DNA of 63,473 bases, filler included, from Folioceros fuciformis (Eukaryota), in assembly GCA_049999805.1 (NCBI GenBank). It is 19 parts of 19 records of this genome, joined end to end, with 100 filler letters (N's around TTAATTAATTAA, not from the genome) between each part and the next. Parts side by side here need not be neighbours in the genome. Positions count along the whole stretch, not along the records: positions 52,251 to 61,752 come from JBNGIO010002996.1; 18 more parts are not named here. One strand, given 5' to 3'. The translations under genes and the position numbers were made by a program. The notes beneath the pieces are model-generated. The model worked only from the letters and a program-made list of their open reading frames with translations. It searched no databases and was not told the origin of the DNA. Below, in pieces: positions 7,567 through 62,599 of the stretch (position 1 is its first letter; each line of letters begins with the position of its first letter).

Positions 7567-7619
7567 AAGATGCATCTTCCATGTATTAGTGCAACGGATT
7601 CATCTGCACGAGTACATAC

Positions 7620-10450: not shown

Positions 10451-10841
10451 ACCACACACCCATTCACCTCAAAGCAGCTGCCCACCAAATGAGCATGTAA
10501 CAGTTTCCCTGATGCCAAATCACCGATGTCTGCACAGGCTTTCAACACTGCCACAAACGTGCAGTCATTTGGTTTCACACGGGATTACCGCGTCTGCAAA
10601 TACAGTTTTATGGCCTGCTCAGCTTCCCCATGTTNNNNNNNNNNNNNNNNNNNNNNNNNNNNNNNNNNNNNNNNNNNNTTAATTAATTAANNNNNNNNNN
10701 NNNNNNNNNNNNNNNNNNNNNNNNNNNNNNNNNNCCTCTTCAGTGGAATGAGGTACCTTATGCCATGGAGGGACACCAGCTGCATTCAGCCACGTTAGTC
10801 CAAGCTTTTATCGCAACATCTAACTTAGGGGAGCCGCAGTC

Positions 10842-12431
10842 ATGTCAGTGGACAAAGAAAAATGGCTAGAAGCCATAAATTCAGAATTCAACTCGTTGAT
10901 TGAAAATGAGACATGGGTGTTGAAGGATTTACCACCTGGTAGGACACCAATCTCAAACCGCTGGGTTTTCAAGTGTAAACTTAATCCCGATGGCACCACG
11001 GCATGCTTCAAGGCTCGACTAGTGGTGCGTGGTTTCTCCCAGCATGAAGGCATTGATTATAATGAAACTTTTTCCCCAGTTGTACGCTTGTCATCTGTTA
11101 GGACACTGTTAGCTATAGCAGCTGCCAAAGGATATAATGTACATCAAATGGATGTACAGACCGCTTTTCTCAATGGTGTGCTGGAGGAGACCGTCTACAT
11201 GAGCCAACCAGAAGGTTTTGTTAGTAAGAAACACCCTAAACGTGTCTGTAGATTGAAGAAAACACAATATGTGCTGAAACAAGCGCCTAGGTGCTGGAAC
11301 AGGCGATTGCATAATTTCTTGCTTAAGCATGGATTCAAGCAGTCAGCAGTTGATGGAAGTGTCTACATCTACAGGCAAGGTAATGAGGTGACATACTTAG
11401 CTGTTTATGTAGATGACACCTTGATTATAGGGTCCTCCTTGCATATAGTCGATGAAGTTAAAAGAATCCTGTCGCTGGAGTTTAAGATGACGGATATGGG
11501 GCAATGCACTTTCTTCTTGGGAGTACAAGCTATGATCAATAAGCAATCTGGAACAATTCTGCTACACCAAAAACATTACATAGACAGACTTCTGGATAAG
11601 TTTAATATGAAAGATGCAAATCCTGCAGCCACTCCAGTTGCAGTTGGAGCAGTACTCACGCAGGAACAATGCCCTAGCAGCCAGGTAGAAATCCAGGAGA
11701 TGTCCCATGTTCTGTATAGAATGTTGGTGGGCTGTCTACTGTGGTTGAGTTCGTGGACGCGACCAGATATTGCATTTGCTACTTCAGTTGTTTCTCAGTT
11801 CTTGTCAAATCCGGGGCAACAGCACTGGTCAGCAGCAAAGAGAATTCTGCGCTATCTTAAAGGCACAGCTGGTTATGGTTTGCAATATAAGAAGGAATCG
11901 AGTAATCAGCTGGAGCTTACTTGTCACTCGGATTCGGACTGGGTAGCTGACAGAGATACGAGGAGATCTGTTTCTGCCTTCTGTGAAAAATTGGACAGAA
12001 ACTTGGTGAGCTGGTCCTCGAAGAAGTAGTCGGTGGTTGCTCTGTCGTCGACTGAGGCTGAATACTCAGCACTCACATCTGCAGCGCAAGAGGTTATGCA
12101 TATGAGATCTCTGTTGCAAACCTTGGGACATGAGCAGAGTTAGCCTTCCTACATTTGGTGTGACAATCAGTCAGCGATGGCGATTGCAAGAAACCCTTTC
12201 GCACATTCCAGAACGAGGCACATAGAAGTCAAACAACACTTTATCCGCAAGGCAATCGAGGATGAAGTGATTGAATTAAGTTATGTGAACACCGTCGACA
12301 ATATTGCTGATCAGCTTACAAAGGCATTGGGAAAGAGTGAGCATGCAAGGCACACCGCTGGTCTAGGTGTTGTTCAAGTCACACAGACGCCAGCAAGCTC
12401 AAGTCACAAACTATTAACAGGTTCGAATTGA
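10842..12431 (+). pseudogene. Copia reverse transcriptase-RNase H
   Basis: FKARLVVRGF, QMDVQTAFLNG, YVDD, SDSDW, RTRHIEV and ADQLTK motifs, with in-frame TAG stops. PPT-like AAGTGGGAG at 12490-12498. Confidence 0.95.
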
Positions 12432-16275: not shown

Positions 16276-16481
16276 AGTTGGAAGACTACATGCGGAAGCA
16301 TGTCTTCAAGCAAAGAATATGATTAAGAACTAATATAAAAGTACAATAGTTGTGCTTTTATAGGCATCACCCTAAAGGGTGTGACCTTTCACTAGCCTAG
16401 CTAATTAACCTTACACATAGTGTGCTAAGCTAACATGACTTAGGGTTACATAACTCTAGTGAACTGCTACCCCTTCTAACT
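16276..16481 (-). mobile_element. Copia 3' LTR (206 bp) with AG...CT termini
   Basis: Bounded by AGTTGGAAG and CTTCTAACT (9-bp inverted repeat, 1 mismatch). PPT (TGAGAGGGAG on minus) abuts at 16482. Shares ATGCGGAAGCATG with the LTR at 52770. Confidence 0.78.
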
Positions 16482-17019: not shown

Positions 17020-18803
17020 TGATGTTGTGGACTATGAGGGGGATCACCAATGTAATGATGAGCAGCCAAGTGCTTTTGAAGACTCAGATAACAGTGAAGC
17101 TCAAAGTGATGTTGTACTGTCAAATCTTGATGAGACTGCTGATGCTGATCCTTCTTCTCGCTATCCTGTAAGGATGAGAAGACCACGAGAGTTATGGGAT
17201 GAGCCACCTTATCAATCTGAAGATTTCAGGAGACATACAACAGCCAATGTAACAGACTTGTATGTACCTGATGTCAGACCTGATCCTCAAACACTTGATG
17301 AAGCACTGAATGGTCATGATGGGGCCCATTGGCGAGAGTCCGTTAATGACGAGTACAATAGTCTCCTAAAAACCGAGACGTGGGAGCTAGCTGATCTGCC
17401 ACCAAACAGAAAACCTATTACCTGTAAATGGGTATTTGAAACTAAACTAAAGTTAGATGGAACTATAGCAAGATATAAAAGCAAACTTGTGGCAAGAGGG
17501 TTGTCACAGATTCCTGGGATAGATTACGGAGATACTTTCTCCCCCGTAGTGAAGCCTCCATTTGTCAAAATCCTGCTTGCACTTGCCGCTGAATTTGATC
17601 TTGAACTCCATCAGATGGATGTCTGCACGGCCTTCTTACATGGAGAACTGGAAGAGGTTCTCTACATGAACCAACCAGAAGGATTTGTTAGTAAAAAATG
17701 GCTAGGTAAAGTCTACAAACTTTTGAAGACTATCTATGGTTTGAAACAAAGCCCTAGAGCCTAGTACAAACGAATTATGAAGTTCTTGTGTAAGGCAAGC
17801 TTCTCACAATCATCAACAGACTCAAATGTATTTTACTTATCTGAGTTTGGGCTCTTTGTCATCTTGGCCTTGTTTGTCGACGATGCAATTCTACTAAGCA
17901 ACAGCATACCACACATGAACAAGGTTAAGGATCTTATGAGGAGCAAGTTTGAGATGACAGATCAGGGTGCCCTTCAGTTTTGCTTGGGTATTCAAATACT
18001 TAGAAACAGGCAGGACGGGACAATTGTCCTTCATCAGTCAAAATATCTCAAGGAAATAATTAAACGATTTCACCTGGATGAAGCTCGTCCTATAACGGCC
18101 CCTTCCGTTGTGGGTGAAAAGCTTTCAGTTGACATGTCCCCTCATTCTGCAGATGAAAAAAAGGATATGGCTGGTGTCCCTTATGCTGAGGCAGTTGGAT
18201 GTCTCATTTTCCTGGCAAACTGGACTAGACCAGATATAAGCTTCTCTGTTAGTGTGGTAGCTTAATTTATCAAGACTCAAGGTCGAGTCCATTGGGCTGC
18301 AATAAAATGTATCTATCGTTACCTAAAGGGAACAGTCAATTTAGGCCTGCATTACACTGCTAGTGGCAAAAAGAGTTTTGTGCTTACTGCCCTAGCAGAT
18401 GCAGACTGGGCATCAAATTCAAACACTCGTAAGAGTCTGTCTGCCTATGTATGTTTGCTAACCTCCGGTGCTGTCAATTGGTCATGTAAAAAGCAATCTT
18501 CATTAGCACTGTCATCTACTGAGGCTTAATACAAGGCCCTCACAGACGCCTGAAAGGAACTTGAATGGGAGAGACAGTTTTTAGAATCCACGATTCCACG
18601 CAAGGACAAAGCTCATAGAGCTTTATCACCACTACATTAGAGATGTGGTGGAGAGAGGTGTGGCTAAGGTGGAGTATGTAAGCAATGATGAAAATACAGC
18701 AGACCTATTGACTAAAGGGCTTTTTAAGGTCAAGCACTATGAGCATCTTGCTTCTATGGGCTTAAGGGTGTCTACTATGCCGATACGCAAAAGTGCAAGA
18801 TAG
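17020..18803 (+). pseudogene. Copia INT-RT linker, RT and RNase H (copy A)
   Basis: YKSKLVARG, QMDVCTAFLHG, FVDD and DADW motifs. Internal stops, and a 74-bp deletion relative to the copy at 45135. Confidence 0.95.
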
Positions 18804-20971: not shown

Positions 20972-22807
20972 TCAAGCGGAACTACATTCCACAGGATGGC
21001 TCCATCCGATCCTCTGAGCCTGTAAGTCGTATACGATGTGACGATTTTGCTGCTGCGCATTCCCAAAGATGGCAGGCCCTTCCTCATTGGTTCCCAGCAT
21101 GACAAGGAGACACGCAACGTCGGAAATCTCGGAGCTGTTGAAGGGAAAGCCAAAGACGTTCTCTTGTCGAAGGTTCATGATGGCTCCTCCAGCGAATGCG
21201 AAACTCACTTCCGGAAATGTGGGATTTGAGACTTCAGAAATATCGTAGCAAAGATAGTTCCCGGTCTCCGACGTTGTGGGATAGGAGACAGTAGCTTGAA
21301 TTGTCTGGACAAGAGGATTGTAAGCGGCCGCGTAGAGGACGGTGAAAGTGGTTCCAGAGTCGAAGATAAGTCCTCCAGTTCCTGCATGAGCAACATTCAC
21401 CCAACCGTGGTTGATCAGGACCTTGCAAGAGAATGCAAGGAAAGGATTCTCACCGTGTCAAAATACTGGACAGTTGTGAATTGGAGCAAGTGGGCACCAT
21501 CATCCTGGATATCAAACGTCCCCTGTGGTATGGACAGTTGTTGGCCTCCAACAGAGATGGAGTCTAGACCAACGTAATACAGGCCAAATTCGTTGCTGAT
21601 GAGCGGAGTAAACTGAACTGCGCTGGAGATGGCATCACTGCCAACGATCAAAGGACTTGTAGCAGTCGGCGAACCACCCCAGTTCATTAAGCAGTAAGAG
21701 AAAATGTTCCCTTCTTCTGACGCCACCTGAGCCAGTGGGGAACACAACTCAGTAACTTGTTTACGCTGTTAGATCATTCCTTGCCTAGTTTAAGTGGGGC
21801 ACAAAAGGTCCATCGGCTGTCACAGAATGGTCAGATTGCAGGTATTACAAGATGGTGGAGCATCCGAGATGTACCTGAGATGCAAATGAGATATCCTGCA
21901 TCCCAAGTCCCATAACGCCATCGACGTCTGCAAATTCTTCACTGACGTCGAAGCTGAGTCCAAAGATAAAGTTTGGCAGATGATTGCTCTGCCCACCTCC
22001 TTCTTCAGGTAGTGTAACGGTGTCATAGGAAAGCGTGCCTGACGTTCTTGATCCATCTTCATAGTTGTATTCGTAGATGCAAACGCTACCTACAAGCACA
22101 AGACGAGAGTTGTGGGCCTGGCCTCCAACTCCAACGTAGTCTGATGAAATTATGTGCAACAGGTTCTTACCAAGTTGGCAATACATGGAGCCCTGGCTCG
22201 AGCACGTCACGTCTGCACAGCTCGGCACTCTGTATGTTAATGAAAGGGCAGCATTGAACTGATTTGGTCTACCACCAGTGAGCCATACCAAATCGCTTCC
22301 AGTGTCCATAATCAGCCTCACATTCTGAGGAGGGGTTCCGAGAACAAAATCCACCACGTGATCCCCCTCAAAGGCGTACGAAGGGGAAGTATACTCGGGG
22401 TTATAAACCTTGTTGCGGTGAGCTCTACGATGATGGTTCCCACTTAGCCTCTCCCGCCTGCGTTCACTTCGTTCCAGTGCGTCTTGGAAATAGGCAGCCA
22501 GCTTGAATTTTCCATTCACAGCAAACTTGCTGCTGGACTGAGACTGGTTCCCTCCTTTGTCAACACCGACGCTTCTTCTTGAAAGCGTAAACTGAAGTCT
22601 CTTTGATTCCTTCTGAGCCTGGTAGCTGCTGGTGTGCTGAGCATTTGAAAGCTCTGTAGGCCGGTCAACACCATCAGTGTCGAACACATCAGACTGCAAC
22701 CTTGTGGCAGAAGTCACAAAAAATATTGAACACACAATAACACAAAGAACAAATCTGCTGCTGCTTCGAGTTCTGCTGGGATGGAAATGGCATGGTGGTA
22801 CTGCCAT
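20972..22807 (-). CDS. A1-family atypical aspartic protease (nepenthesin/CDR1-like, TAXi_N + TAXi_C), about 496 aa, 4 exons
   Basis: Exons 22807-22171, 22089-21875, 21726-21498 and 21381-20972, joined by GT-AG introns, total 1491 nt in one frame. Hydrophobic N-terminal segment, GTPPQ, catalytic DTGSD and DSGTT, FSYCL, GNAQQQN..YDL...IGW. Confidence 0.9.
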
Positions 22808-24323
22808 GATGTTGCGAAGTAGTTGGGTTCCAAATTGCCAATGAGAATGTAGCCTGATTGGGCTCACAGAGAAGTCAGGAATCTGAAAGGGGGGCTGGTC
22901 TAGATACTACAGGTCCTCTCGAAAGCAAAGCAAGGATGTCGCCCATATTGGATGCTGGTGCTTTGTAAGGTTTGTCTTCGAGTTGGGAAGATCACCAATT
23001 CTGGTGAGCATGCAGAGGGTAGGAATTGACAACTGTTAAGAGCATGGATTGGGCGTGTGATAAACCTACCGACTGGCAGACACGGTCTATGTTTGACATG
23101 TTGCAATTGAAGGTTCCTGTGAAAGTTGGGACTGGTTAAGCATGGGAGATGCAGCCATTCTTGATTCGGTCTTCACATGTTTCTTTAAGGGAACAGGTGA
23201 ACAGCCTTGATTCAAATGGCAGCATATGTCAAGATCGATCACCATACGGTCACATCGGTTGTCGCTATCCATCACCCAAAATTGCTCCTCTTTCCTTCTG
23301 AGAATAACAGCCGTGAAACTCATGTTCCTTATGTTGTGTGTACAGAAGCTAGGCTCAATCTTCCTCAGCAACCTGCCCACACGTTAGACACAGTAGAGCT
23401 GCCGTTCCCGACGATTTTAGCGAAACCGTTCTTATGGCACACGAAGGGATTAAACATAGCATTCGATTGCGATGTAGGTCGATGTCAAAGCACGAGAGCA
23501 TTTCTTCTGCTGATGGTGCAGAAAGACTAGAAACATCGTTCCCCCGTTCCAGCTTTCAAACTTCGTTCAGACTGCGTTTCAGGTCCCTTGCGACGGGATC
23601 CACAAGAGCCACTTCGAAACCATTGTGAATTTCTGCGAACCCTTGGAGTCATTGCCTAGTCTAAAGCTCAGCCGATAACAGGGCATCCCACAAACCCCGG
23701 ACCGACACATACTCGTTCAGCTGATGGTGCCAGGATGCAGTGAAACTTGAGACTCAGACCTATGCTGTTCAGCGGTCTTGTAGGCACTGGAGCTCTTCTG
23801 AAAGCCTCAACCACATTGCAAAGGGCCATGGTAACCGTGAGCGTTTGGAGTCAGCTTTGCGGGAATCCATTCAGCATCGTTCAGGAACAGACCTGTCATA
23901 ATCTAGCCATCTCACAACATATTGAAGGTGTCAGGATGAAGCTTAAGAAGCAGCAACAGTGAAATCATATCTACAGTTGTCCAATGGCACTCCAAAAGAT
24001 GGAACCCTGGTCAGACACTCACAGTAGAACAGGATTGGAAGAACTTCAGAAGCTGTGGAATTCCAAGGACTCCAGACCCTTCAAGCCCATGAGGAAATAA
24101 TAGAGACAAATAATAGAAATAATAGGACTCCACACCCTTCAGCCCCTTGTGACGTCAAGCACTCTGGAAAGCCAGACCTATAGGACAAGGATGCCAACAT
24201 GGCCAAGCCTGCAGCTTTCGAAGGCTGTCTTGCCGTACAACTTCAGCAATGTTGACGGATCACAGTCCACCTGTGATCTTCCTGGAACAAAGCTGGTAAG
24301 CGTGTTGTTACAAGCTTGCATGT

Positions 24324-36559: not shown

Positions 36560-37563
36560 GCCAAATCTCCAGGCACAACATACTCTTGTTTACGCAACTT
36601 CTGGTCGTGCCACTTCTTCCTCCTCTCCTGGACATCAAGAAAAACAGCCAACGCCCGTTCCCTGCCCTCATCATGCTGCAAAAAACTGGTCAGCCTCTCC
36701 AACTGGCTCTCCTCCACGGGCAACCGGTTGCTCTCCCGCATCCTCAAGGTGGGTACCTCAAATTCGATGGGCATGACCGGTGAGTGTCCATAGGTGAGGT
36801 AATAAGGGGTCTGCTGGGTAGTAACCTTCTCAACAGTCCTATATGCCCACAAGGCTGAATGGAGCTTCCTATCCCAGTCATGAGCATAGCTGACGGTGAG
36901 TTTGCTGAGAATCTTGCACAACAACCCGTTAGCCTTCTCCGTGAGTCCATTGGCCTTAGGGTTGTAGGGAGTGGTCTTCCTATGACTGATATTGAAATAT
37001 TCAGTCATGTGCTTGACCACTTCATTGATGAAGTGAGTCCCCCTATCACTCATCAGCTCCAACGGACACCCATACCTCGTGATGATCTGTTCAAACAAAA
37101 ATCTGGCCACCACATTTGCTATGTCCACGGGCAAAGCTTGAGCCTCCACCATGCGTGTGCAGTAGTCGGTTGCCACCAGGATGTATTGGTTCTGCCTTCC
37201 CTTGGATTTGGGCTGGATTGGTCCTACGAAATCAATCCCCCACTTCTCAAATGGTGCTAGGGCTAGGATGGGGACCAATGGCCATTGTGTGGTCCTGGTA
37301 GGCTTCCCCACCCTTTGGCACGCATCACACCTCCTAATGAATTCTCCAGCATCAGTATGCATTGTTGGCCACCAATACTCTGCTGCCAGAATTTTTCTGC
37401 AGGTCACATGGGCTGCGTAATGACCCCCAGCCTCTCCCTCATGTAAGGAACTGATAACTTGCTCCACTTGGCCAGGCTTGACCCACAAACGCTCCACGCC
37501 GTCAGCCCCTGTGCGATATAGCCTGCCCTTGTACTGAACAACCAGTCTTGTGAAGTACAAGAA
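36560..37563 (-). CDS. Gypsy (Tat/Athila-like) integrase fragment
   Basis: HEGEAGGH, CDACQR, FEKWGIDFVGP, SDRGTHF, YNPKANGLTEKAN and ALWAYRT motifs. Confidence 0.95.
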
Positions 37564-37663: not shown

Positions 37664-39685
37664 TGTTGGATGGCACCTCCTTGCAGCTCTTTGATGTGTT
37701 GTATGTACCGCCTATGAGCAAAATTTTGCTCTCTGTTAGAGCAATTACCTCTGCTGGACAATATGGATTTAGCTTTGAGCACAACCACTGTTTTCTTTAC
37801 AGAATAAAGGATCCACGGTATTATGTTGCTAAAGCTATTTTGCAGGATGATTTGTATCAGTTGGATACCTCTTCTCCTTGTAGTGTTCAGGCGTTGGTGG
37901 CCTCTAATTCTCTTCAAGCTAAGCTTTGGCATGCACGTTTGGGTCATGTCAACCAGTCTAAACTCAATCTGATGTCCCATCTAGCTGCTATCGTGATAAG
38001 TTGCCTTCCTATTTCAAGCACCTTGCACCCTGCAGTGCTTGCATATTGTCTAAACAAAAGGAGCTTCCCTTTAAAAATCATATGGCTACAAGAGCTAGAG
38101 CAGTCCTTGAGTTGATACATGCAGATCTTGCAAGGAAACTTCCAATTAAATCTCTTGGTGGGTCTGAGTATTACTTATCTCTCACAGATGATTTTTCTCG
38201 CTATACCTAGACTTTTCCTTTGCAGCTGAAGAGTGATGCCTTTGATCATATTTCCACATGGATTCCTATGGTTCAAAGACAAACAGAACATTTGGTTAAG
38301 TGTTTTCGCACAGATAATGGTGGCGAATTCACTAGACATAGGTTTGATGACTTGTTTCAGCTTTATGGAATTACAAGGCAACTAGTTGTCTATTCCATAC
38401 ACACAGCAGCAAAATGGTGTGGCTGAGAGAAAGAATCAAACCTTAATGGGTATGACCAGAAGTATGTTGGCTTGGGCAGGTCTTCCAAAGTCCTTTTGGG
38501 CTGAAGCTGTGGTTGCTACCACTTATATTTTGAATAGAGTTGTCACAGCTGCTCTTCCAAGACGTACACCTTATGAGGCGTTTTGGGGTCGCAAGCCAAG
38601 TCTTCTTCATCTTCGGGTCTTTGGGTCTCCAACCTTTGCATTTGTTCCTGAAGCCAAAAGGGGGAAATCAAATCATAGGTCCAAGCCCTTAGTTTTTCTT
38701 GGCTACTCAGAAGAATCCAAGGCCTATAAGCTATTTGACCCTCAGACACATAGGATAACACTAGCTCGTAGTGTTACATTTAGGGAGATTACCTCTTGTA
38801 AGTCTGACTCTGTTTGTGGTGATGTTGTTCCCTTGACTGCTGAGTTGGATGAATCTTCTAGTGAGGTTTCTTCAGTCATGTTTCCTCTATCTGATGGTGG
38901 TCTGGATACATCTACTGGCTCCACCATTCCTGCCACTGGTGATCAGCATATAGATGCAAATTTAGAGGGAGTTGGTGCTACAGTCGCTGATGTACCTGAT
39001 GTGTTTGATCAATTGCCTTCTGATGAGGATGTTGTTGATGAAGAGGATGCTGGGCTTGGAGACTTTGTTGCTCAACCTCTTGAAGAGGACCCTCCTCTTA
39101 ATGCTGACCCAGCTCCACGTTACCCTATGCGTGAGCGTCGACTACAGGATCAGTGGTTAGAGCAGCCATATCAGTCTATTGATTTTAGGAAGCCCTCAGC
39201 CCATGTAGCTGCTATCTCTATACCTGATGTGAGACTTGATCCTCAATCGTATAGGGAAGCCTTGGAAGGACCTGATGGAGCACTTTGGCGCATCTCTATA
39301 GCTGATGAGTACAACTCTTTGATTAAAAATAACGCTTGGGAGCTAGCAGACTTGCCACCTGGGAGGAAGCCCATTACATGTAAATGGGTGTTTAAGACAA
39401 AGCTCAAGGCTGATGGGACTATAACTAGACATAAATCTCGACTGGTGGCACATGGCTTCAGTCAGATACTAGGTATTGACTATGGTGATATCAACCTTTA
39501 GTCCTGTTGTGAAGCCGCCTTCAGTGCGCATTCTTCTAGCTATGGCAATCGAGTTCGATCTAGAGCTCCATCAGATGGACGTCTGCACTACCTTTCTTCA
39601 TGGAGAGTTGGAAGAGGTCTTATACATGACACAGCCATAGGGTTTTGTTAGTAAGGAGTATCCCAACAAAGTATGTAAGTTACTC
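37664..39685 (+). pseudogene. Copia pre-integrase, integrase and RT start
   Basis: LWHARLGH, LELIHAD, DDFSRY, RTDNGGEF, QQNGVAERKN and CKWVFKTK motifs, with frameshifts. Confidence 0.95.
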
Positions 39686-40907: not shown

Positions 40908-43763
40908 GCTGCTCATCATTACATTGGTGATCCCCCTCATAGTCCACAACATCAATAGGATCTGGATCTACAGGAGGTGCACAAATAGCAGGTACCAAAG
41001 GCGGGTTAGTCTGTTCATTTTGTGCCTGTAAGAGAGCATCAACTGCTACATGGTCTAACAGAGTAGAAACATCTCCATCTGACTGTGGGTAATTATGTGT
41101 GGACTCTGTATCAATAGGTATACTCTCACGAGTGGTAGACAAGGAATCTGTTTGAGGAGTCAAAAGTTCCTTGAAGGTAACACTACGTGCTAGTGTAATC
41201 TTGGAGGTCTTAGGGTCATACAACTTATAGGCTTTGGATTCCTCTGAATAGCCAACAAAGATGGAGGGTCTAGACCTATCATCTAACTTCCCCCTCTTGG
41301 CTTTAGGGACAAAAGCAAAAGTAGGTGACCCAAAGACCCGCAAGTGCAGCAGGCTAGGCTTGCAACCCCAGAAAGCTTTATAAGGGGTGCAATTAGGCAG
41401 AGCAGAAGTAACAAGTTGATTCAGAATGTAAGTAGTTGTCACCACAGCTTCTACCCAGAATGTTTTTGGTAAGGTAGCCTACGAGATCATGCTACGTGTC
41501 ATGCCCATCAAAGTTTGATTTTTGCGCTCAGCAACACCGGTCTGTTGTTGTGTATAGGGCACTGACAACTGGCAAAGAATACCATACGCCTGGAAAAGAT
41601 CATCAAACCGATGGTCAATAAATTTCACTCCATTATCAGTCCGGAATCATCTAACAAGCCGTCCAGTGTGTCTCTGGACCGTAAGGATCCAAGTTGAGAA
41701 GTGTTCGAACACATCACTCTTTAACTTGATACGGAAGGTCCAAGTATAGCTGGAAAAATCGTCAATCAGTGATAGATAGTATTCTGCTCCACCAAGAGAC
41801 TTCACAGGCAGCTTTCCAGCAATGTCAGCATGCACAAGTTCAAGGACAATAGTTGCCCTAGTAGGTTGTTTATTCTTGAAAGGCAATTCTTTTTGTTTAG
41901 ACAGTATGCAGGATGTGCAGGTTGGCACATGCTTGAAACATCTGGGGAGCTTTTCTCTGTAGAAGGTGGAGTTCGACATGAAATCCAACTTTGACTTGTT
42001 CACACGGCCCAACCTCGCATGCCACAGGTTAGCCTTTTCATTGTACAAAGCAAGAAGGACTCTAATGCGTGACTTAGACACCTTGACCAGTTGATAAAGA
42101 TCATGTACTAAGACAGCCTTAGAAAGATTCTTCTCTCGACATGTAAGGAAATACAGATAGCACGTACTACTTTCAAAATGAAAACCATATAGATTCATTC
42201 TAGAAATGGCTCTAACAGACAATAAGTTTCTGCTCATTGCTGGAACAAACAGAACTTCCTGAAGGTGCAGGGTTGAACCATCAAGAAGTGGTATGTCTAC
42301 TGTACCTGTCCCTTTTACCTCAACGCCCCGTGCATCACCCACAAAGACTGACTGAGGGGTTTGCAGTTTGTGAAAGGAAGAAAACATTTGTCGATTGTTG
42401 CAGACGTGAGCAGTCGCTCCCGAATCAACGAACCAATGCTGAGTGTTCTATTTAGTTGAAGTCAGACAAACTGTAAGTACAGAATTGCTGCTTTGAGGTT
42501 GTTGTTGGCCATTCTGAGATTTTGCTTCCTTGGATGAAACATGAGCCTATGATCTAACATTCTTTTTGGGCTCTCCAGCTCTCTTCTTTCTACAGTCACG
42601 TTCCCAATGCCTAGGTATCTGGCACTAGTTGCAACTGACGGTGTGCTTAGTGGTGGAGGAAGAGGTACCATAAGTGTTTGAAGAATTCTTCTTACTTTTG
42701 TCAATAAGTGAATAACGTTTCAACAAACCCTAAGCATATCACATGACTTCTAACTGATAACCGTTTGTGCCTGCAGACATTCTCAGAATGCAAGGGACGT
42801 GACCCAAGGACATCTACAACACCATGACACTCCAACCAACAGGCGCAATCTACAGCACTGCCTGTTGAGAGCTCCAGGGCAACGAATTGTAAATTCGCAA
42901 GCTGTCTCTCACACCCCTTTAGATCTGAGGGGTCATCTTTGGCTGATCCTCAGCACATGCTCCATCTCTCATGGGAACAAGAGATTCCAGGTATATCGCT
43001 GCAACTGGTTGCAATGCAGAGGTAGAAGCATGTGTTTGTTGAACTCTGAATTGAGTAAGCTGAATAACAAGTTCTGCAACTTCGGATTGCAGGGACTCCA
43101 CACTTCTGATCACTTCACCAAGTCTTGGAATTGTAAAGGCAAAGGTATGGTCAGCAAGCAATTCGATACTGTTCAACTTGAGGATGAGATGGTCAGTTAT
43201 ATAAGGACTTGCTGTAGAATCAAGTTGCTCAAGTAGTACTCCATCTTCAAGAACTTCTCCTAACCAATTTTCTCGTTCAATCCTTGATTGCAGAAGCTCA
43301 ATCCGCCTGGAAACCACTTGACTGGAGTAGTTGTGGGAAGAGATAGAAAATTCTCTCACCCTGTCCTTCTTCCTAGCATCTAAGAGCAGATCATTGAGTA
43401 GTCTACTAATGTAATCTGCCCTAGCAGCCCAAGGAGATGAAGAGATAGGCTCTATACGCCTACCACTCCTTCTAGGCATTTTAAGCATAGGAACAAGAGT
43501 CAAATATGCCTATCATTTGAGATTGCTAGGACACTAGAGTAGACACACTAGACTCGACATATTTGCAATCACATTGCAAGCAACATAAGTAGAAGTAGTA
43601 CAGCGGAAGACTCAAAGCATCGAGAGCTCTGATACCATGTTATTTTATGCATTTGTTCAAGGATTATTTAGACAAAGAATACTTGAGACAATGCAGCAAA
43701 AGAACGTAATTCAATTAATACAAAATTGTAGCTTTTATAGTGTCAAGTTTGTTAAACCCAAAA
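40908..43763 (-). mobile_element. 5' half of a Copia element (LTR end, PBS, ORF0, gag with N-terminal deletion, PR, INT)
   Basis: PBS TGGTATCAGAGC at 43626-43637, zinc knuckle, WFVDSGAT, LWHARLG and DDFS. A 47-nt end overlap links it to the contigs at 17020 and 45135. Confidence 0.92.
42919..43479 (-). CDS. Intact ORF0 (about 186 aa, coiled-coil) downstream of PBS
   Basis: ATG at 43479 (MPRRSGRR...), no internal stop, heptad VIRSVESLQSEVAELVIQL. Confidence 0.65.
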   Translation of the reverse strand: MPRRSGRRIEPISSSPWAARADYISRLLNDLLLDARKKDRVREFSISSHNYSSQVVSRRIELLQSRIERENWLGEVLEDGVLLEQLDSTASPYITDHLILKLNSIELLADHTFAFTIPRLGEVIRSVESLQSEVAELVIQLTQFRVQQTHASTSALQPVAAIYLESLVPMRDGACAEDQPKMTPQI

Positions 43764-51787: not shown

Positions 51788-53178
51788 TGTTAAGCATGAT
51801 TAATGTTGAGATTAATTAGTGCTAATCCAGCTTATTGAGTTTGTACTAATTAGTGGTAAGAGTGATTAAGGTTATGATTAATATATATATATATAGCTTG
51901 TTAGACTTTGTTATGTTAGGCAAAAAAGTATTGTAGGTTTGGGGTCATTTATCCCATATTGGGCACGAAATGAGAGTGCCACCCATAGGTCCATAACAGA
52001 AGGGATGAACCCACTTAGTATATGTAGTCTAACTCCTTCTTCACTTGTATTGTATTGTTTTTGTAATTCTCCTTTTTATTTGAGTTTAAGAGCCTTGTTA
52101 TAATGCTCTTAGTTTTGGGATTCTGCATCTTGCTTCAACTAACTTGTTTTNNNNNNNNNNNNNNNNNNNNNNNNNNNNNNNNNNNNNNNNNNNNTTAATT
52201 AATTAANNNNNNNNNNNNNNNNNNNNNNNNNNNNNNNNNNNNNNNNNNNNGACCCTTGATAGTTTTTGCTATATAAGACATTTTGTATTCATAAAAATGA
52301 TGCTTTTATCAACACTTGGAACATTCTTAGATCAAAGTTGATATTAAAGACTTGTCTTCAATTCAATAGGTTGCATGCACACTGTCACACAAAATCAGCA
52401 CTCCAAGAATTTTAAAAAGTGAGTATTGTCTTTATCACTAGTATGAGCAATGTGAAGATGTAGGCACATTTTGCATATGTATGATAGTTTATAAAGTCTT
52501 GTGGAAGTCCAATCGAGGAACATAAGAAGGAACTTTGACAAGCTCAACACAAGTAGTTTATTGAGTAGAAGTAGGTTTGGTGGAGGAAGGGATTGTTAAA
52601 GTGGAAGCTTTAGGTTATGGTCAAATAATCTGGCAAACTATCTTAGATCCTCGTATGCTTCGATTACTCTATCGGCAAGCATTTCATCACTGCTCAAACT
52701 AAGATAGGTAGACAAAGGTCCCTCCTAGATGCACGTAATTTGTTATTGACACTTTCCAATATATCTAACTGATAATAAATGCGGAAGCATGTTTGTAAGA
52801 AAAGCATTAATTAATACAAGGGAAGTGTCCTTTAAGTACAAAACTGAATGTGTCTTTTGAGTTATGAGTATAACCTCTAGTCTAGTAACTAGGGTATAAA
52901 CTATGTTAGGATTTCAATCCTAACACTCCTACTAAACCAACATGGTTTATACAACTATAAGTTCGGACTCATAATCATCATATACCATTATGTTCCAACT
53001 ACTCTTAGTAACGGGGTGTACTTCCAACATACACAGCCTGGAGCTCCTGACTGCCTTCCTTATATGCTGAGCTTGCTTCCTGTTCAACAGAACGATTAAG
53101 CGCACAAGCCTGAAGACGAAGACAAGCTCTGGAGCATCACACAACGCAAGCCGTGCTCAGGTTCCTCAGCATATCAAC

Positions 53179-53975
53179 ATGAAGAGTGCTAGCAGCACTG
53201 GCGGGAGCGGAGCACGCGGTCGGTTTGTAACACGTAGAGCAACTCTGCACGCGGTTGAGCCTACAATGGGCGCTCTCCCACTTGATGAGCGCCCTCCAGT
53301 GAGGACTCTGCCACCAGCTTCGATCATAGTTGAGCTGGAATCTTATGAGTTTGAGCCCGAGATGACTAACATTGACCTTGTCACCAACACCACTAATGAT
53401 GACTCAGATGCTGTAGAGAGCTTCCTTCATCGTCAAGTCGGAGCTGGAGGACGAACTCCCACTGCATCTATGCCGGAGCGGCAAGTTGCTGCCGTCATGG
53501 TAACCCTGACTGAAATGGAGGCCCCGCTGGACGTGAAGAGGGCTGAGGTGACCCGACAGCAGGCAGCCCTAGTGGAGGAAGCCGTGAGCATAGCAGCAAC
53601 CCCCTCCGACAGAGCCTTTGATGACATAGAAGTCGGCATAGCTGGAAGGAACCAAGAGTTTAGCGTGTGTGCACATAGATGTTGTCTGTGCCCCCCGTGT
53701 GGAAAGAACCTATACAAGGTATGTAATTTCCTACCTAATCCTGTTCCATGCCATGCCTACGACTCAATTCAAGCTTTACGCTTCATCCACCAGTCATGCA
53801 TGTACAGTGTTCTAACCTAAGACCTTATCTACCCCTGCAGGATGGCTAAGAGCATGGAGTTGTTTCTCATTACAGCAGTGGCAAGAGCCACTAAGGTGAA
53901 GACCCAATGTAGGGATAGCAGCATGCTTCAGCTTTAGCCATAGAATTGCCTAGGATAGTCAGTCTACTTTCATAG
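53179..53975 (+). CDS. Antisense accessory gene of the Copia element, probably 2 exons (intron 53719-53840)
   Basis: 180 open codons, then AAG/GTATGT donor, CTAAC branch point and CCCCTGCAG/G acceptor. Exon 2 has stops consistent with C>T decay. Confidence 0.6.
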
Positions 53976-56900
53976 GATAGCTAAACTCTTTCAAACCTAA
54001 GGCAGCCATATGCTGGAAATGTTTGGCCTTTGGGAGCCCATTTGTGAGTATGTCTACAGTGTTGAGATGAGTGCTGATATACTGTACCTTGATAGCCCCT
54101 CGTTCTGCAACATCCCTAATATAATGGTGAGAGAGCTCAATGTGCTTTGTACGAGCATGAAAACAGGGATTAGATACGAGAGCTATAGCGCTCATGTTGT
54201 CACAATGCAGCATAGTTGGTTCTTTGTGTGTTTGATTCACTGACTCCAGAAACTGCCATTGCCATTTAGCCTCCTTACAAGCATCCGTGAGCACTTTGTA
54301 CTCAGCCTCCGTAGAGGAAAGGGCAAGTGAAGTTTGCTTTTTGCAACTCCAACTGATAGTTCCAGAGGCCAACATGCAACAATAAGCTGACAGGCTCTTC
54401 CTGGTGTCGGCATCTGATGCCCAGTCAGCATCAGCAAATGAGATAAGTTCAAGCCTATTGCTCTCACTGCTTGTATAGTGTAGCCCATAAGATGCTGTAA
54501 CCTTTAAGATAACAATAGATCCTTTTAATGGATCCAAGTGTTGTCTTCCAGGTGACTTAAGAAACTGTGACACCATGGTAACTGGTATCTAGTTTGGTCC
54601 AATTTGCGAGATATATTTAATAGCCGATTGCATATGGGACAGCCTGCATGTCCTCAAGCTCTTGTGCATTCTGAGGAGACATGGTATATGTTAACTTCTC
54701 CCCCACTGTAGAGGGAGTGGCTATAGGTTTAGCCCCATCCAGGTAAAAACTCTTCAGTATATCTTTCAAACCCTTTGTTTGATGCAGGATAATTTGACCA
54801 TGTGGCCTGTGACGCAGAATTTGGATCCCAAGACAAAATTGCAGATCCCCCTAATCTGTCATTTCGAACTCTTGGCGCAGCATAGCTTTGACCTCTTCAA
54901 GTTGATCCTTGCTGCTACTGAGAAGTACAAAGTCATCAATATATAAGGCCATAATGACGAACAAGGTACCAACGGCAAGATAAAAAACATTAGTGTCAGC
55001 AGGGGACTGCTGAAAACCAAACTTCCGTAAGTACTTCATGATCCTTTTATACCAAGCCTAAGGAGACTGCTTATGACCATAAACGGTCTTCAGCAATTTG
55101 CAAACCTTGCTTACTGTTTTAGAACTGATAAATCCTTGTGGTTGTTCCATGTACATCGTCTCCTCTAATTCTCCGTGCAGGAAGGTAGTACGGACATCCA
55201 TCTGCTGTACTTCGAGGTCGTATTCAGCTGCCATAAGCCAACAAGATGCGGATCGAGGGAGGCTTGACGCCTGGTGAGAAGGTGTCACCATAGTCTATGC
55301 CTGGAATCTAACTAAAGCCCCTTGCAACTTAACTAGATTTATACCGAGCAATGGTTCCGTCTGCCTTGAGTTTAGTCTTGAAGACCCACTTGCAGCTGAT
55401 AGATTTCCTGCCTTTTGGTAAGTCCACAAGTTCCCAAGTATTATTTTTTATAAGGGATACATACTCGTCATCAATAGAAGTTCTCCAGTGAGGACCATCA
55501 AGGCCATTAATCGCTTCATCATACATCTGTGGATCAGAACGAACTTCAGGCACGTTAAAATCAAACACATTTGCTTGTGCTCCTCGTCGAAAATCCACAG
55601 CTTGGTAAGGGGGTTCAATCCACTGCTCATGAGGTCGTCTGTCACATGCAGGATACCGGGGTTCCTCCACAATGACAGGTACATCACCAGGTGCTCCCAC
55701 GTCTTGGGCAATAGGTAGCTCACCATCTAAAAAATCAACGGCTTCACCATCATCTGACAGTGAACAAGTAGACTCTGACTGTGCATCATGCTCATCAAGG
55801 AAGTCCTGATCGACATGTGGTCTGTTGCAGGCTCTTTGTCAACATCAACATTATCCACCACAGGTAATAAGTACTCGCCATCAGAATCACGATAGTTCAC
55901 TGCTGGTTGTGGGATAACTGATGGAGGTGGAACTGCTGCAGATACAGCTGGTGTAGAAATTTCAGCTAGTGGTTCAGAACTTGGATTGTCCTCCTCGTCA
56001 GCCAAGATGGGTATATTGGTACCATAGTTTGTAGCTGTACTCCTGCGAGGTGATGAAAGTTCATCCAAGGTTACACTACGAGCTAGTACCACTCTTCTGG
56101 TTGCAGGCTCATATAGTTTGTATGCTTTTGAAACCTCATAGTAACCAAGAAATAATAAGGACTTGGCCTTGTCATCTACTTGCATCGTTTCTGTTTAGGG
56201 ACATAAGCATACGCTATGGAGCCAAATACTCGCATGTGCAACAGACTTGGTTTCTTCTTCCAAAAAACCTCGTAAGGGGTTTTACCACGTACTGAGGTTG
56301 TCAATATTTGATTCAGTATGTAAGCAGTTGTTGTGAGGGCTTCTACCCAGTATTGTTTAGGCAGCCTTACCCATCCCAGCATGCTCTTGGTCATACCCAT
56401 TAAGGTCTGGTTCTTACGTTCGGCCACTCCATTTTGTTGCTGATTGTACGACATTGAAAGCTGGAGTACAATTCCATGGGTTTTAAACAACATTTCATAT
56501 TGGTGACCTATGAACTCTCCACCGTTGTCAGTGCGAAAGCACTTCACCAAGTTGCCAGTCTGTCTTTGTCCCATAGACATCCAGGATTCAATACACTCAA
56601 AGGCGTCACTTTTCAGACAAAGTGGGTACACCCAAGTGTAGCGAGAGTAGTCATATGTTAAGGTAAGATAATACTTAGCCCCACCTAGTGACTTAACTTG
56701 CAGCTTGCTTGCAATGTCCGCATGGACAAGTTCTAACACTGCCTGAGCTCTGTGTGCTTATTTATTTTTGAAAGGAAGCTCCTTCTGCTTCAACATAACA
56801 CAAGATTGATAGACAAGGAGATGCTTAAAGCATGAGGGCAGTTTTTCCCTAAAACAGTCCAAGGAGGCCATTAGGTTCAACTTCTCCCTGTTAACATGCC

Positions 56901-58331
56901 CAAGCCTAGCATGCCACAAGTTTGCTTCAGACGTTGTAGAGGTAACATACACTTCTGGTTCTGCAGTCATGTTCAATTGATAAAGTTCATTAACAAGATG
57001 ACCCTTAGCAATGCATCTACTAGGTTTGGACAAATCATAGAGACAACAGTGGCCTTGCTTGAAAGAGAAGCCATATTTTCCAAACTGGGTGGCCGCATGG
57101 ACTGACAGCAAATTCTTTGACATTGTTGGCACATACAGGACGTCTTCCAACAAGATTTTAGATGCTTCAAATAAGGTAATGGAAACTGAACCTACTCCAC
57201 GTACATCTGCGCCTCTAGAGTCCCCCACGTACACTGACTGTGGTGCAACCTTTGTTGTTAGTGTGGCAAACAGGTCCTTGTTATTACACACATGAGACGT
57301 AGCCCCTGAGTCAATGAACCAGGAGTCAGACAATTCAGCAGAGGACGACAAACGGAATGTAACTGTTAAGACGGTCAAGCGCTCTTCTGTGGAGTGGATC
57401 CCTTGTCTTTAGCAGCGAAATGTGCCTCAGAGCAAGGTTCCTTCTTGGGTTCTCCAGCCTTTTTCTTGCAACAGTCCCGCTCCTAATGGTTGGGAATTTG
57501 ACACCAGTGGTAGACACCTTGACGTTTGCTGGATGGAGTTGAAGTCGTCGAGCTGCTTCCAGGTGGCTGCTGGTGAGATTGCTTCTCCTTCCCCCTTCCC
57601 TTCACAAACGGCTTGCCCTTAACTGCAAATAACACTTTCTCATCTCTTGAGCGAGTGCCCTGACCTGGTTTGTGTCTACTGGCCTCCTCTTGCAGGAAAG
57701 CCCCGACCACAACATTCAGATTGAGGGAATAAGATTGATTTGCAGCAGCAGCGGCATATGTAGCAGATAGTGCCAAGTTCTGTCCAGAAATGAAGGTCTA
57801 ATAGGATGGAGGCAAGGCTGTAAACAGTTGGGCGACCATCTCAACCTCGCTAATCTTGGCTCCTAGTGCAGACAATTGTGCTCGCATCAGCCTCAGCTTG
57901 GTGACACCGAGTCCAACAGGTTCTCCCTCCTAAATCCTGAATGAATGAAAATCACTCCTGACATGCATTAAAGTACAGACATTCTGCACCTTGTATGTGT
58001 CTTTGAGCTGAATCCAGACCTCAGCGGTTGTGGCCAGGAACTCAACCTCAATTACTGTTGTGGCATCCAGCCCAGACAGCAAGATAGCAAGTGCCACTTT
58101 GTTTCCTTTGTCCCATTTCGCTTTTTCATCTGCTGTAGGTTGAACTGCTGCTGTAGCGGAGACACTGTGCGGATTTGGGATAGTGCCATCGACGAATTCC
58201 CATACATCACAGGCATTCAGGTAAACTTGCATGTGTGCTCTCCAGCTTTCATAGTTCATAGGCTTGCCATCGAAACGGTCTTTCTCTTTGAACTCTCCAA
58301 CATAGTTGCCAGCTCCAATAGTAGTAGCCAT
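53959..58331 (-). pseudogene. Copia gag-pol (gag-PR-INT-RT-RH)
   Basis: FKEKDRFDG, WFIDSGAT, LWHARLGH, RTDNGGEF, QMDVRTTFLHG, YIDD, ADADW and RTKHIE motifs, with many disruptions. Confidence 0.95.
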
Positions 58332-58639
58332 ATTGGTGACAAGTATTGCTGGGGTAGCTAAGTGTGGAGGGAGAATGAATCCAGGAAACTGAGATTGCAG
58401 GGATTGTACAAAAGCACGTTCTGTTGCTAAGTCCTAATTTAGATCACTGCTTGAGTCCGAAGACAACCAACTTGAGCCAAACGACATGGGAGAAAATGAA
58501 ACGACATCGAAAGGAGGTAAGTGACGTTTCTAAAAACACTGCCCTTAGGGTTAGATACGAAAGTATCTAAACTAACATGAAGCGTTGCGGGTGAACGCGA
58601 AATTGTGACAAGTGTCAGGACTCATCAACCGTCAACCTG

Positions 58640-59352
58640 GCGACGAACACCGGTTGAAGTCTGCTTGAGTGCCTCCAACACTACACCTTCAAGCCGCTCG
58701 CGTGATCCCCCTCCAATCTGGAGCAAAGGATCCCAAAGCGTGAGGCGCCTTCACAAATCTAACTGCCCATGCTTCGGTGCCATGGTTGGATCCTCGCGTG
58801 TCTAAAGCAAAATGAGCAAATTGGTGGTGACCTGGTGTACTTGCGGCATTGAAGTAGACGCAGATCCAATCTCCAAGCGCTCTAGTCTCTCCGACAGCAA
58901 GGAGAGTGAATTCTGTATACCGTGTAGCAGAGTTTGAACCATAATCGTGCGCTCACCCTGCTGCAACAGTAAGGACTGCTGTCGACAGATTTGTGTAAGT
59001 ATCGATCCCTCTTAGCTGGTGACGCTAGAACGCAAAGCCTCCAGCCTGAATTCAACCAAGGAATCAAGGGTATTGAACCCTCCGTCAATTTCTGAATACG
59101 TCTGTGAGTCTGACCGTCTTGGTCTGTCGTGGCTATTGCAGGGGAGCGGAGATGGAGCTCTTTCCCCCAAATTGAGCTGATGGGGCCTGTTCACAGGTGG
59201 AGGAAATCCCCACTGATTTTGATGGCCTTAAGGAAACCGATGCACAAAGCGATTATTTCCCTGCCGCTCAACTTGGTGTGTTCGACTCCTGTGTTTTCTG
59301 TTCATGTATTGTGACGAAGACTCCTCAGGACGTGGTCACTTCTTCGCGCCAT
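58640..59352 (-). pseudogene. Degraded ORF0
   Basis: MARRS start at 59352. After a frameshift, one long frame with a few TAA/TAG/TGA stops contains the heptad IQNSLSLLSERLERLEIG. Confidence 0.55.
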
Positions 59353-60830
59353 GTTGCAAATGCCACAGACTCATTTACATATCCATTATTATTTTTTAGA
59401 GAATACTAACGATCTCTAGAGTGCAAGCAAAGATGAATTAATAGTCACACAATCAAACATTTCTCAGAGAGAGATTTGTATATTATGTGGTTAGATAAAT
59501 CATCTGATGTCTGTAACATCCTAGAATCAATTAGATGGATCAATAGAGCTGGTGCTCTAATACTATGCTAATAAATGCGGAAGCGTGCTTGTAAGAAAAG
59601 CATTAATTAATAAAGGGGAAGTGTCCTATAAGTACAAAATTGAACGTGCTTTTTGGGTTATGAGTTTAACCTCTAGTCTAATAACTAGGGTATAAACAAT
59701 GTTAGGGTTTCATTCCTAACACTAACATGGGTCAACGAAGAACAAGATCTCATGTGAAGTAGACATATTCTCCACTTTTTAAGAACAAGCCAAATTTGAG
59801 ACAAAATAACCCCTATCAAATATTGTTGAATGTTGATTCTAGTAGTTTTTCTAAAAATAGTAGGAAAAAATCACCTAGTTTTAACTGAAAGCTGGTCATA
59901 TATCTTTTTAGACACACAGCTTATATATATTTTAGGGTTACTTTTTACCACTGAATATTCAATACCCAAATTTTGGTGGAAACATCTAACTTTGAACACA
60001 AAATGGATGATTTCTATATTTTGCAAATACTTTTTAATCTAAGTGTGTTCTAAGCATGAATGATGTCTATATTACTTGGAATATAAAGAGCAAATCACAT
60101 AAGATATATTGCATCCATCTCAACTTAAGTGTTCATCCAAAATGCAACATGTAAAAACATGGACTTCCACCTCTTTCTAAATGCTAGTTACCAATTGTAA
60201 CACTAACTTGCAGCCCTAATAAGTATCTTATTTTGGTTCCTGCATGCCAATTGTAGCTCGTAACCTAGGAGTTCGTCGTCCAAAATCATGTTGCTTAATA
60301 ATTCTAGTATTGTACAAGGCATTGGTGTAAAGTCTCTACTCCATGCTAAGCACAGTGTATCCTTGCTTGCTATGGAATCAAAATGTGGTACTTGGCTAAG
60401 ACGGAGACAAAGTAAAGGAGGAGTGAGGGAGGGAGGGAGAGAGAGAGAGTGATGGTGACATAGAGTCGTCACCAGCAGTCACCAAAAGCTAGAACATCAA
60501 GTAAAAGTGGGGGTGAAGTATAGGAAACATCAGTGGGAGGGAAAAAGAGTGCGAGAGCAGGAGGGAGGGGGCATGGACCTGAACAAGTAGCCTCGCCCAC
60601 GGATGAGTATGGAGTCGAGACCAGAAAGAAAGAAGGGAGCTCAAAGTGGAGGTTTGTATGAATCCCCTCCAACGTCCGAAAATGGAGTAAGGAAGGAGTA
60701 ATCGGAGGAAGAAATAGAGAGCGACAAGGGGTCGGACCTGTCTCACAAGTTTGAGGTTACACAAATACTGGGTGGGGTTGTCAATCGCATGGTTGTGGCC
60801 ACACACTCCACGATTGTTGTAGTGCACTCT

Positions 60831-61752: not shown

Positions 61753-62599
61753 NNNNNNNNNNNNNNNNNNNNNNNNNNNNNNNNNNNNNNNNNNNNTTAA
61801 TTAATTAANNNNNNNNNNNNNNNNNNNNNNNNNNNNNNNNNNNNNNNNNNNNGGCAGGACGGCCTGTCTTCTGGGCTGCCTGCCTGCACTAGTGTCGGCC
61901 CGCCACTTGCGCCAGTGTCGGGCCGCCTGCCCCTCAGCCACCAGCCGCTACTCAGCTCCAGGCCCTCGCCTGGAAACTTGCACCTCTGCGCCCAATCGTC
62001 TAAAACTGGCTCTGATCCTACCGCACAAATCCAGCAGCCCGGCTAGTCTTCCCGTCATGACCCGTCCCGCCTGGCCCATCCTCGACCAGCCGGCCGGATC
62101 CGACGGCCAAGCCCCTGCCATCCTGCCGCCGATGCAACCAGCTAGTCAGCCCCGCTGGTCGCACGATAGGGCCGCTGCTGGCTCCAAGCTCCGACCAGGC
62201 AGCCTTCCCACGAGGCCCAGCCTGCCTGCTCTCAAGATCCTCAGCCCCCAGCGCACCTGGGCAAGGCCATGGCAAGTCTAAGCACGCCACCCCCATGCCT
62301 ATGCCCAACCGCCTTCTGCACGCTCCCGAGGCCCCAACTCACCCTCACACGCCCGACTTAGGGTTCCACACACACCGGCGGCCCTCTCCACGGGCACACC
62401 TTTCCCCTACTTCACATTTTCCACGGCCACGGGCTAGTTAGACGATTGTTGACTTTCTAAACTGCACCACCACTATCTCTGATCATCCTATTTAGTCTAG
62501 CCTTATCTAACATAGTTTCCTAATTACCTGTCCAAGGAATTCTATCAAAACTCCAAAAAAAACAAATACCACCCATTTTCTAAGGGGCCTATCCACCAT

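Follow-up and report, generated by a model that had tools for sequence, protein, structure and literature searches.

An antisense open reading frame with an intron-like segment in the 3' spacer of a Ty1/Copia relic of Folioceros fuciformis: a candidate captured genomic fragment

A 63,473-nucleotide stretch of DNA from Folioceros fuciformis (GenBank assembly GCA_049999805.1), referred to in full as the window, contains a Ty1/Copia retrotransposon on its minus strand, and the spacer between the end of the pol region and the 3' long terminal repeat (LTR) of this element carries, on the opposite strand, an open reading frame (ORF) that is more than chance and that ends at an intron-like segment. 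The explanation that we favor, and to which we give about an even chance of being right, is that the ORF and the segment belong to a captured intron-bearing genomic fragment that was copied passively in antisense orientation, as a passenger resembling the class of antisense ORFs designated aORF-3'R.

Antisense reading frame and intron-like segment

The plus-strand frame is open for 249 codons (53071 to 53817) within the spacer of the minus-strand element. The first ATG of the frame, at 53179, and the LTR end, at 52925, are 254 nt apart; the codons from this ATG to the donor site form the exon-like ORF, or exon 1. The coordinates given in an earlier note on this DNA, namely, a pol stop at 53959 and a plus-strand ORF of 180 codons starting about 250 nt from the 3' LTR, were all found in the sequence. 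A frame of 249 open codons was reached by 1 of 2,000 dinucleotide-preserving shuffles of the spacer and, when its G+C-rich core alone was shuffled, again by 1 of 2,000; allowing roughly 60-fold for the scan of the whole window would bring this figure to near 0.03. Base composition across the 180 codons was uneven by codon position, as in coding DNA (chi-square, 31.3; P, 2.2e-5), with G at 73 (41%) and T at 17 (9%) of the 180 first positions. Codon usage was scored with a model trained on 13 Pfam-supported ORFs of the window, with stop codons excluded so that openness could not count, and this model found the correct frame in 13 of 13 leave-one-out trials. Read in its own frame, exon 1 scored +0.074 bits per codon, versus -0.10 to -0.18 in the other five. 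Of 2,000 shuffles, 6 attained the own-frame score when read in that frame, and 19 did so when the best of six frames was taken. Downstream of the donor, from 53719 to 53958, the score was negative in all six frames. Nine frames in the window reach at least 249 codons; among the other eight, six have Pfam domains above the cutoff, one lies on the strand opposite a pentatricopeptide repeat (PPR) gene, and the remaining one (14691 to 16319) has a sub-threshold match only.

A strong donor/acceptor pair is located exactly where the coding-like signal stops. The donor, AAG/GTATGT at 53719, is followed by a CTAAC at 53812, which lies 25 nt ahead of the acceptor, by the pyrimidine tract CCTTATCTACCCC, and by the acceptor TGCAG/G, where CCCCTGCAG ends at 53840. 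Strict donors (AGGTAWGT) occur 5 times and TGCAGG occurs 57 times on the two strands of the window (127 kb), in which the single donor-acceptor pair 60 to 400 nt apart is 53719/53840. The composition shifts as well, the G+C fraction being 0.44 in the intron-like segment versus 0.55 in the exon and the T fraction 0.31 versus 0.20. Donor, branch site, pyrimidine tract, acceptor, and composition are those of a spliceosomal GT-AG intron, which bears out the clean phase-0 intron described in the earlier note, and we take 53719 to 53840 to be the sequence of a real spliceosomal intron, present or past.

It could be argued that a chance frame and chance splice-like motifs have come together in a G+C-richer noncoding spacer whose function, if any, is in the sense RNA. 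The ORF is without relatives or a predicted fold, the region is richer in G+C than its surroundings and so has a lower density of stops, and the 1-in-2,000 figure needs the correction noted above because 63 kb was scanned, all of which speak for this reading. We nevertheless consider it highly improbable, since frame length, codon-position composition, and codon usage (stops excluded) are three partly independent coding signals and the unique strong donor/acceptor pair falls exactly at the coding-like end. Frames on the minus (sense) strand of the spacer reach at most 107 codons and matched no family; hence the plus-strand frame is no mere shadow of a sense gene.

Splicing at this junction would join ...CLCPPCGKNLYK to the residues DG and a TAA stop at 53847 to 53849, beyond which EHGVVSHYSSGKSH would lead to a second in-frame stop at 53892 to 53894. 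Other acceptors downstream of the donor would give at most 68 further codons, and their sites are poor. No AATAAA-like or poly(A)-type hexamer was found on the plus strand between 53841 and 54700 (860 nt past the junction), a result that is not decisive in plants. The simplest gene model would end two codons past the junction and would have no need of a long exon 2; repair of the TAA is unneeded, because a gene with its last intron just ahead of the stop is an ordinary model. In a sequencing run guessed to be RNA (X4), the two contigs that matched both fell on the pol part, leaving the spacer uncovered, which is uninformative either way.

The product of the 180-codon exon is acidic (25 D+E versus 18 K+R) and rich in A, V, E, T, and P, and it terminates in the Cys-rich tail CAHRCCLCPPC, which has five Cys and one His; if the segment were transcribed and spliced, a protein of 182 amino acids would be predicted. 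The earlier note had seen in the joined reading a CxxC...H-x6-H arrangement resembling zinc fingers of the U1/matrin type. The letters are indeed present, with Cys at residues 171 and 174 and His at 185, 190, and 197, but as a finger the arrangement was rejected. The stop at 183 separates the cysteines from the histidines and would need read-through, and a second stop follows 15 codons later, at 198; we consider it unlikely that two stops within 18 codons are both new at about 5% divergence. C2H2-type fingers have a canonical spacing of 12 residues, whereas the spacing here would be CPPC-x10-H or CPPC-x15-H. A profile hidden Markov model search of the 249-codon unspliced frame against Pfam at an E value of ≤10 matched no zinc-finger family (the joined reading was not scanned, and the stretch of 17 codons past the junction falls below the length that such a scan needs). 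The lone Pfam row at that threshold, Toxin_8 (alpha-conotoxin precursor), was also rejected, at 14.7 bits versus a cutoff of 21.6, and was judged to be a chance match to the CC..P.C pattern of the Cys-rich tail.

Origin of the block and other copies of the segment

Under the capture reading, a Copia subfamily would have gained about 0.95 kb of foreign genomic DNA, reversed, between the pol stop and the polypurine tract, by acquisition at the DNA level followed by passive propagation. In this block one real coding exon, counting 180 codons from its ATG, would be followed by a real intron of spliceosomal type and by the initial bases of a further exon, in which the frame would close after two codons. 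The intron would have been reverse transcribed and copied along with the element, surviving retrotransposition because its splice signals oppose the genomic RNA strand and are hence unused there; the argument of the earlier note that an antisense intron escapes the splicing of genomic RNA is accepted here as sound, established logic. Any action on the element would more likely proceed through pairing of an antisense transcript with genomic RNA than through a folded protein.

Copia elements usually have roughly 100 to 300 bases between the pol stop and the LTR, and the 1,033-bp spacer is counted as unusually long on this basis. One contig in each of two sequencing runs, X1 and X2, skips a stretch within which the ORF, the intron-like segment, and the short exon 2 all lie; this hints that 52963 to 53914 may be the inserted (captured) block. 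Without these 952 bp the pol stop and the LTR would be about 80 nt apart, as is usual in Copia elements. No tandem repeats and no terminal inverted repeats were found in the spacer, where the repeats present are short and at chance level, and an Rfam scan of the spacer gave no family at the gathering score; snoR113 was rejected at 18.2 bits versus a gathering score of 47.

The runs X1 and X2 are DNA from one sample of the same organism, which may be the source sample of the window itself, and were compared at a likeness threshold of 80%; the figures that follow are among the 26 of 541 pieces and 40 of 871 differing places listed. At least three diverged contigs, 82 to 88% alike, overlap the ORF or the intron-like segment. 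One (record 7) covers 53190 to 53555 with 44 differences and no gaps. A second (record 1) covers 53433 to 53551 with 18 differences and 53684 to 53961 with 37, both without gaps, and between its two pieces 105 bases stand in place of 132, so that the length changes by 27 and the frame is kept. The third (record 2) covers 53536 to 53962 with 75 differences; of its 7 gaps, 3 or more fall within the intron-like piece. Because all three overlap it, the segment is common to several diverged copies, and the possibility raised in the earlier note, that it might be a fragment present in this copy only, was not borne out. The spacer pieces diverge by 12 to 18% versus 11 to 18% for the listed pol pieces, a comparison that is little informative because the copies are unpaired.

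A further run of the same sample, X3, showed 126 C>T and 187 G>A differences over 52500 to 55500, with every other class at 18 or fewer; X1 and X2 were without this bias. By this pattern run X3 looks like a library converted with bisulfite or in a similar way, which makes its contigs unfit for divergence estimates.

Several observations weigh against capture as the origin of the block. No target duplication or repeat was found at its ends. The joint that joins 52962 to 53915 in the skipping contigs is weak, having a shorter side of 32 letters at 80% likeness and being recorded as "between: not known." The third diverged contig has two bases inserted directly after the donor GT. The ATG has an A at -3, and no upstream ATG follows 53064, which fits a complete first exon equally well. 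We infer that the survival of the open frame says nothing on selection and does not discriminate between the readings, since at least five breaks in 4.5 kb of gag-pol imply that a frame of 0.54 to 0.75 kb would remain open by chance about one time in two. No donor gene came to light: an exhaustive phmmer search over 1.84 billion protein representatives gave no match to the ORF, a word-based protein search gave no relatives, and Pfam gave none at an E value of ≤0.01. The protein-model "recognition" value was low (1473), and AlphaFold2 without an alignment returned an unconfident fold (predicted local distance difference test score [pLDDT], 36.6).

Other searches with the ORF agreed in their outcome. 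There was no match among PDB sequences at an E value of ≤1, no usable match in the ESM Atlas, no related locus in metagenome contigs by protein or by degenerate DNA pattern, and none in genome contigs; viral contigs matched neither the ORF nor the pol end. A tblastn search across the window gave nothing below an E value of 0.6, and the window holds no other copy of the element, only distant Copia pol matches at 63 to 69% DNA identity. The product has no detectable similarity to any deposited protein in the libraries searched, a result that would extend to the products of known antisense ORFs insofar as those libraries contain them.

The same anatomy and statistics would equally be expected of a working spliced antisense accessory gene, with a promoter in or near the 3' LTR, the junction 53718/53841, and a largely disordered, acidic 182-amino-acid product with a Cys-rich tail that acts on the element life cycle or on silencing. 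The A at -3 of the ATG, the TATA-like motifs at 52956 and 53061 (the latter, TATATG, lying just upstream of the open stretch that precedes the ATG), and the lack of an ATG between 53064 and 53179 speak for such a gene, as do several diverged contigs that retain the segment, two having no gap over parts of the ORF and one having an in-frame difference of 27 bases. There is also precedent, in that a review reports, in the portions drawn on here, that the antisense ORFs of Grande elements have their own promoter and a nuclear product and that human T-cell leukemia virus (HTLV) has an antisense promoter in its 3' LTR (PMC7264820). Against it stand the lack of a homologue, domain, or confident fold, the lack of an AATAAA-like hexamer within 860 nt past the junction, the insertion at the donor in one copy, and the fact that frame survival in the studied copy is what neutral decay permits. 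On balance we hold an accessory gene to be possible but rather unlikely. A pyrimidine-rich CAG at 53088 to 53090 could serve as an acceptor if the ORF were instead an internal exon.

The block might also be a fragment of another, undescribed mobile element, such as an intron-bearing transposase or accessory gene, that was nested in the spacer and then copied with it. Copia and Gypsy pieces are densely interspersed in the window, and the block appears foreign to the Copia layout, both of which are in keeping with this idea. Transposon proteins are abundant in databases, however, and yet none matched; the block ends show no terminal repeats or target duplication, and nothing else in the window is similar by DNA or protein. 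We regard this origin as improbable and retain capture of an intron-bearing genomic fragment as the preferred reading.

Host element and its surroundings

The element is complete in extent (Table 1), and its assignment in the earlier note to Copia on the minus strand is confirmed by the LTR pair, the 5-bp target site duplication (TSD), and the domain order. The domains follow the Ty1/Copia order (gag, protease, integrase, reverse transcriptase, RNase H) on one strand, the minus strand; the placing of integrase ahead of reverse transcriptase is characteristic of this order. The two LTRs have 89.9% identity over 158 nt (direct repeat, 52770 to 52925 versus 59566 to 59723), and at least five breaks interrupt the polyprotein frame from one Pfam-supported piece to the next. 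With LTRs 10% diverged and a broken gag-pol, the copy in the window is an old, dead relic. The last pol frame on the minus strand stops at 53959 to 53961. The alignment to its closest database protein, P0001, reaches residue 204 of the 209-residue pol-end frame, and we take the stop to be the natural end of pol because P0001 terminates within two residues of the same point (it ends two residues beyond the alignment). The primer-binding-site-like sequence adjoining the 5' LTR may correspond to the tRNA-Met-type site usual in Copia elements.

Table 1. Positions of the element, its parts, and the antisense block in the window
Feature	Position	Strand	Basis or remark
Exon-like ORF, 180 codons, ATG to AAG	53179-53718	+	Coding-like statistics
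Open codons ahead of first ATG (36)	53071-53178	+	Roles putative
Intron-like segment, 122 nt, phase 0	53719-53840	+	Donor, branch site, pyrimidine tract, acceptor
Post-junction codons D, G, then TAA stop (53847-53849)	53841-53849	+	Read in sequence
Stretch of 952 bp skipped by one contig each in X1 and X2	52963-53914		Joint 52962->53915
Spacer, pol stop to 3' LTR, 1,033 bp	52926-53958		G+C 0.50 (scored on 1,031 bases, 52928-53958)
Ty1/Copia element, complete in extent	52770-59721	-	LTR pair, TSD, domain order
TSD, left copy, CTAAC	52765-52769		Read directly; matching 5 bases at 59722-59726
3' LTR, TG...CA, 156 bp	52770-52925	-	Direct repeat; ends read
Polypurine-tract-like stretch GTTGGTTTAGTAGGAG, adjoining 3' LTR	52926-52941	-	Putative role, from position
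Degenerate gag-pol in Copia order (gag, Pol_BBD/gag_pre-integrs, rve, SH3, RVT_2, RNase H region)	53959-58433	-	Pfam
RNase H end	53962-54588	-	71% identity to database protein P0001
RVT_2, start only	55329-55838	-	Pfam
SH3_retrovirus	55727-56194	-	Pfam
rve	56176-56757	-	Pfam
Pol_BBD and gag_pre-integrs	56758-57408	-	Pfam
Retrotran_gag_2	57930-58433	-	Pfam
Primer-binding-site-like TAGTATTAGAGC, adjoining 5' LTR	59554-59565	-	Read in sequence
5' LTR, TG...CA, 156 bp	59566-59721	-	Direct repeat; ends read
TSD, right copy, CTAAC	59722-59726		Read directly

P0001, the closest match to the RNase H end, comes from an unnamed contig; the second match has 52% identity, and named plant Copia proteins have at most 46% among the matches listed, so that by these database matches the Copia lineage of the element looks isolated. 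The leader between the 5' LTR and primer-binding site and the Pfam-supported start of gag is unusually long, at about 1.1 kb (58434 to 59565), and contains short frames only, the longest of which (58882 to 59190, minus strand; 102 codons) is without a Pfam family.

The window is plant DNA in which two genes of host type, a PPR-repeat gene and a TAXi_N/aspartyl-protease gene, lie among Copia and Gypsy relics. The PPR-repeat protein is encoded at 7590 to 8471 on the plus strand (PPR_2; E value, 4e-30), with a shadow frame of 364 codons on the opposite strand (7589 to 8680), and the TAXi_N/aspartyl-protease-like protein is encoded at 21848 to 22906 on the minus strand (E value, 3e-25). The longest frame of the window, with 543 codons at 14691 to 16319 on the plus strand, is strongly coding-like, with 0.41 G at first positions and a score of +0.143 bits per codon; its sub-threshold match is to DUF4100 (19.7 bits versus a cutoff of 27.9), and a retrotransposon gag and a further extra ORF are possible identities for it. 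A very coding-like frame of 216 codons in the G+C-rich first part of the window, at 3 to 650 on the plus strand (G+C, 0.58; first-position G, 0.48, and T, 0.04; +0.181 bits per codon), matched no Pfam family and may extend past the left end of the window. Five retrotransposon relics lie at 10824 to 12026, 17021 to 17761, and 38386 to 39498 on the plus strand and at 41650 to 42447 and 36562 to 37563 on the minus strand; four are Copia pieces (RVT_2, SH3_retrovirus, and Pol_BBD), with 63 to 69% DNA identity to the studied element, and one is a Gypsy-type integrase (Integrase_H2C2 and rve). The window contains 36 masked runs of 44 N (1,584 bases) in 18 pairs, 12 bases apart within a pair, the first pair at 4918 to 4961 and 4974 to 5017 and the last at 61753 to 61796 and 61809 to 61852. 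None lies inside the element, and the nearest is at 52151 to 52250.

Relation to known antisense reading frames

Antisense ORFs (aORFs) between pol and the 3' LTR have been described in Gypsy elements of the Tat/Retand group, including gene23 of maize Grande, rice RIRE2, Silene Retand, and Phaseolus PvRetro13; in the portions of the review considered here their role is given as unknown, capture of host sequence is one proposed origin, presence in all or most copies of a family, and not in one or a few, is the criterion for an aORF, and attention to antisense and spliced transcripts is called for (PMC7264820). The ORF studied here occupies the position of the aORF-3R or eORF-3'R class, being a plus-strand frame in the spacer of a minus-strand element. 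Like the Grande, RIRE2, Retand, and PvRetro13 aORFs, as far as the review covers them, it lies between pol and the 3' LTR in reverse orientation and lacks clear database similarity, and, as with the Gypsy aORFs, the segment is carried by several family copies. It differs from them in that its host is a Ty1/Copia element, in that it is shorter (180 to 213 codons), and in that it is followed by an intron-like segment, none being mentioned for the Gypsy aORFs in those portions of the review.

Among Ty1/Copia elements, extra ORFs (eORFs) of at least 250 codons have been reported for 582 elements in 45 heterogeneous groups, mostly without domains, under a classification that, in the parts of the paper used here, provides for a 3' reverse class (Neumann et al. 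2019, PMC6317226). The characteristic Copia case given there, SIRE, is a forward ORF (eORF-3'F), whereas the ORF in the window is reverse, and the 250-codon threshold of that study would miss it, at 249 codons from stop to stop and 180 from the ATG (PMC6317226). Our literature search brought up, to judge by titles, papers on human or mammalian elements, and we found no published account of a plant Copia element whose antisense ORF bears an intron; the additional files of PMC6317226 may list reverse Copia eORFs. Fragments of host genes captured by LTR retrotransposons have been counted at 672 in rice, 1,343 in sorghum, and 424 in maize (PMC3726574). The block would resemble these in being foreign coding DNA in the internal region that is copied with the element; the text of that paper makes no mention of introns or orientation (PMC3726574).

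The review also notes that HTLV-1 has an antisense gene, HBZ, at its 3' end, served by the antisense promoter in the 3' LTR (PMC7264820). The likeness to the ORF in the window is an analogy of layout alone, since HTLV-1 is a human retrovirus, HBZ is a basic leucine zipper (bZIP) protein, and there is no sequence relation. HBZ has a spliced form. What appears to be new in the element from F. fuciformis, judged from its sequence, is the combination of the known place and orientation of antisense ORFs with a Copia host and a preserved exon-intron structure.

At present this is an in silico case in a dead copy. The antisense ORFs of Tat/Retand elements are known, and their origin and role are open questions. 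The boldest interpretation is that a Ty1/Copia family has a true antisense gene of two exons, with transcription starting at the 3' end of the element and splicing on the opposite strand, so that the intron would outlast each retrotransposition cycle. Such a gene would give either a lineage-specific 182-amino-acid protein or a regulatory antisense RNA, which would act as a modulator of the element or of its silencing. We consider this interpretation unlikely; if true, it would provide a plant Copia counterpart of the Tat/Retand antisense genes and of HTLV-1 HBZ, a route by which retrotransposons could duplicate genes with introns, and, were expression and selection shown, a small, tractable case for the role of antisense genes in retrotransposons. 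If the favored capture of a genomic fragment is true, the block would be direct sequence evidence that antisense ORFs can start as reversed, unspliced pieces of genomic DNA, and it would mean that retrotransposition can multiply intron-containing gene pieces.

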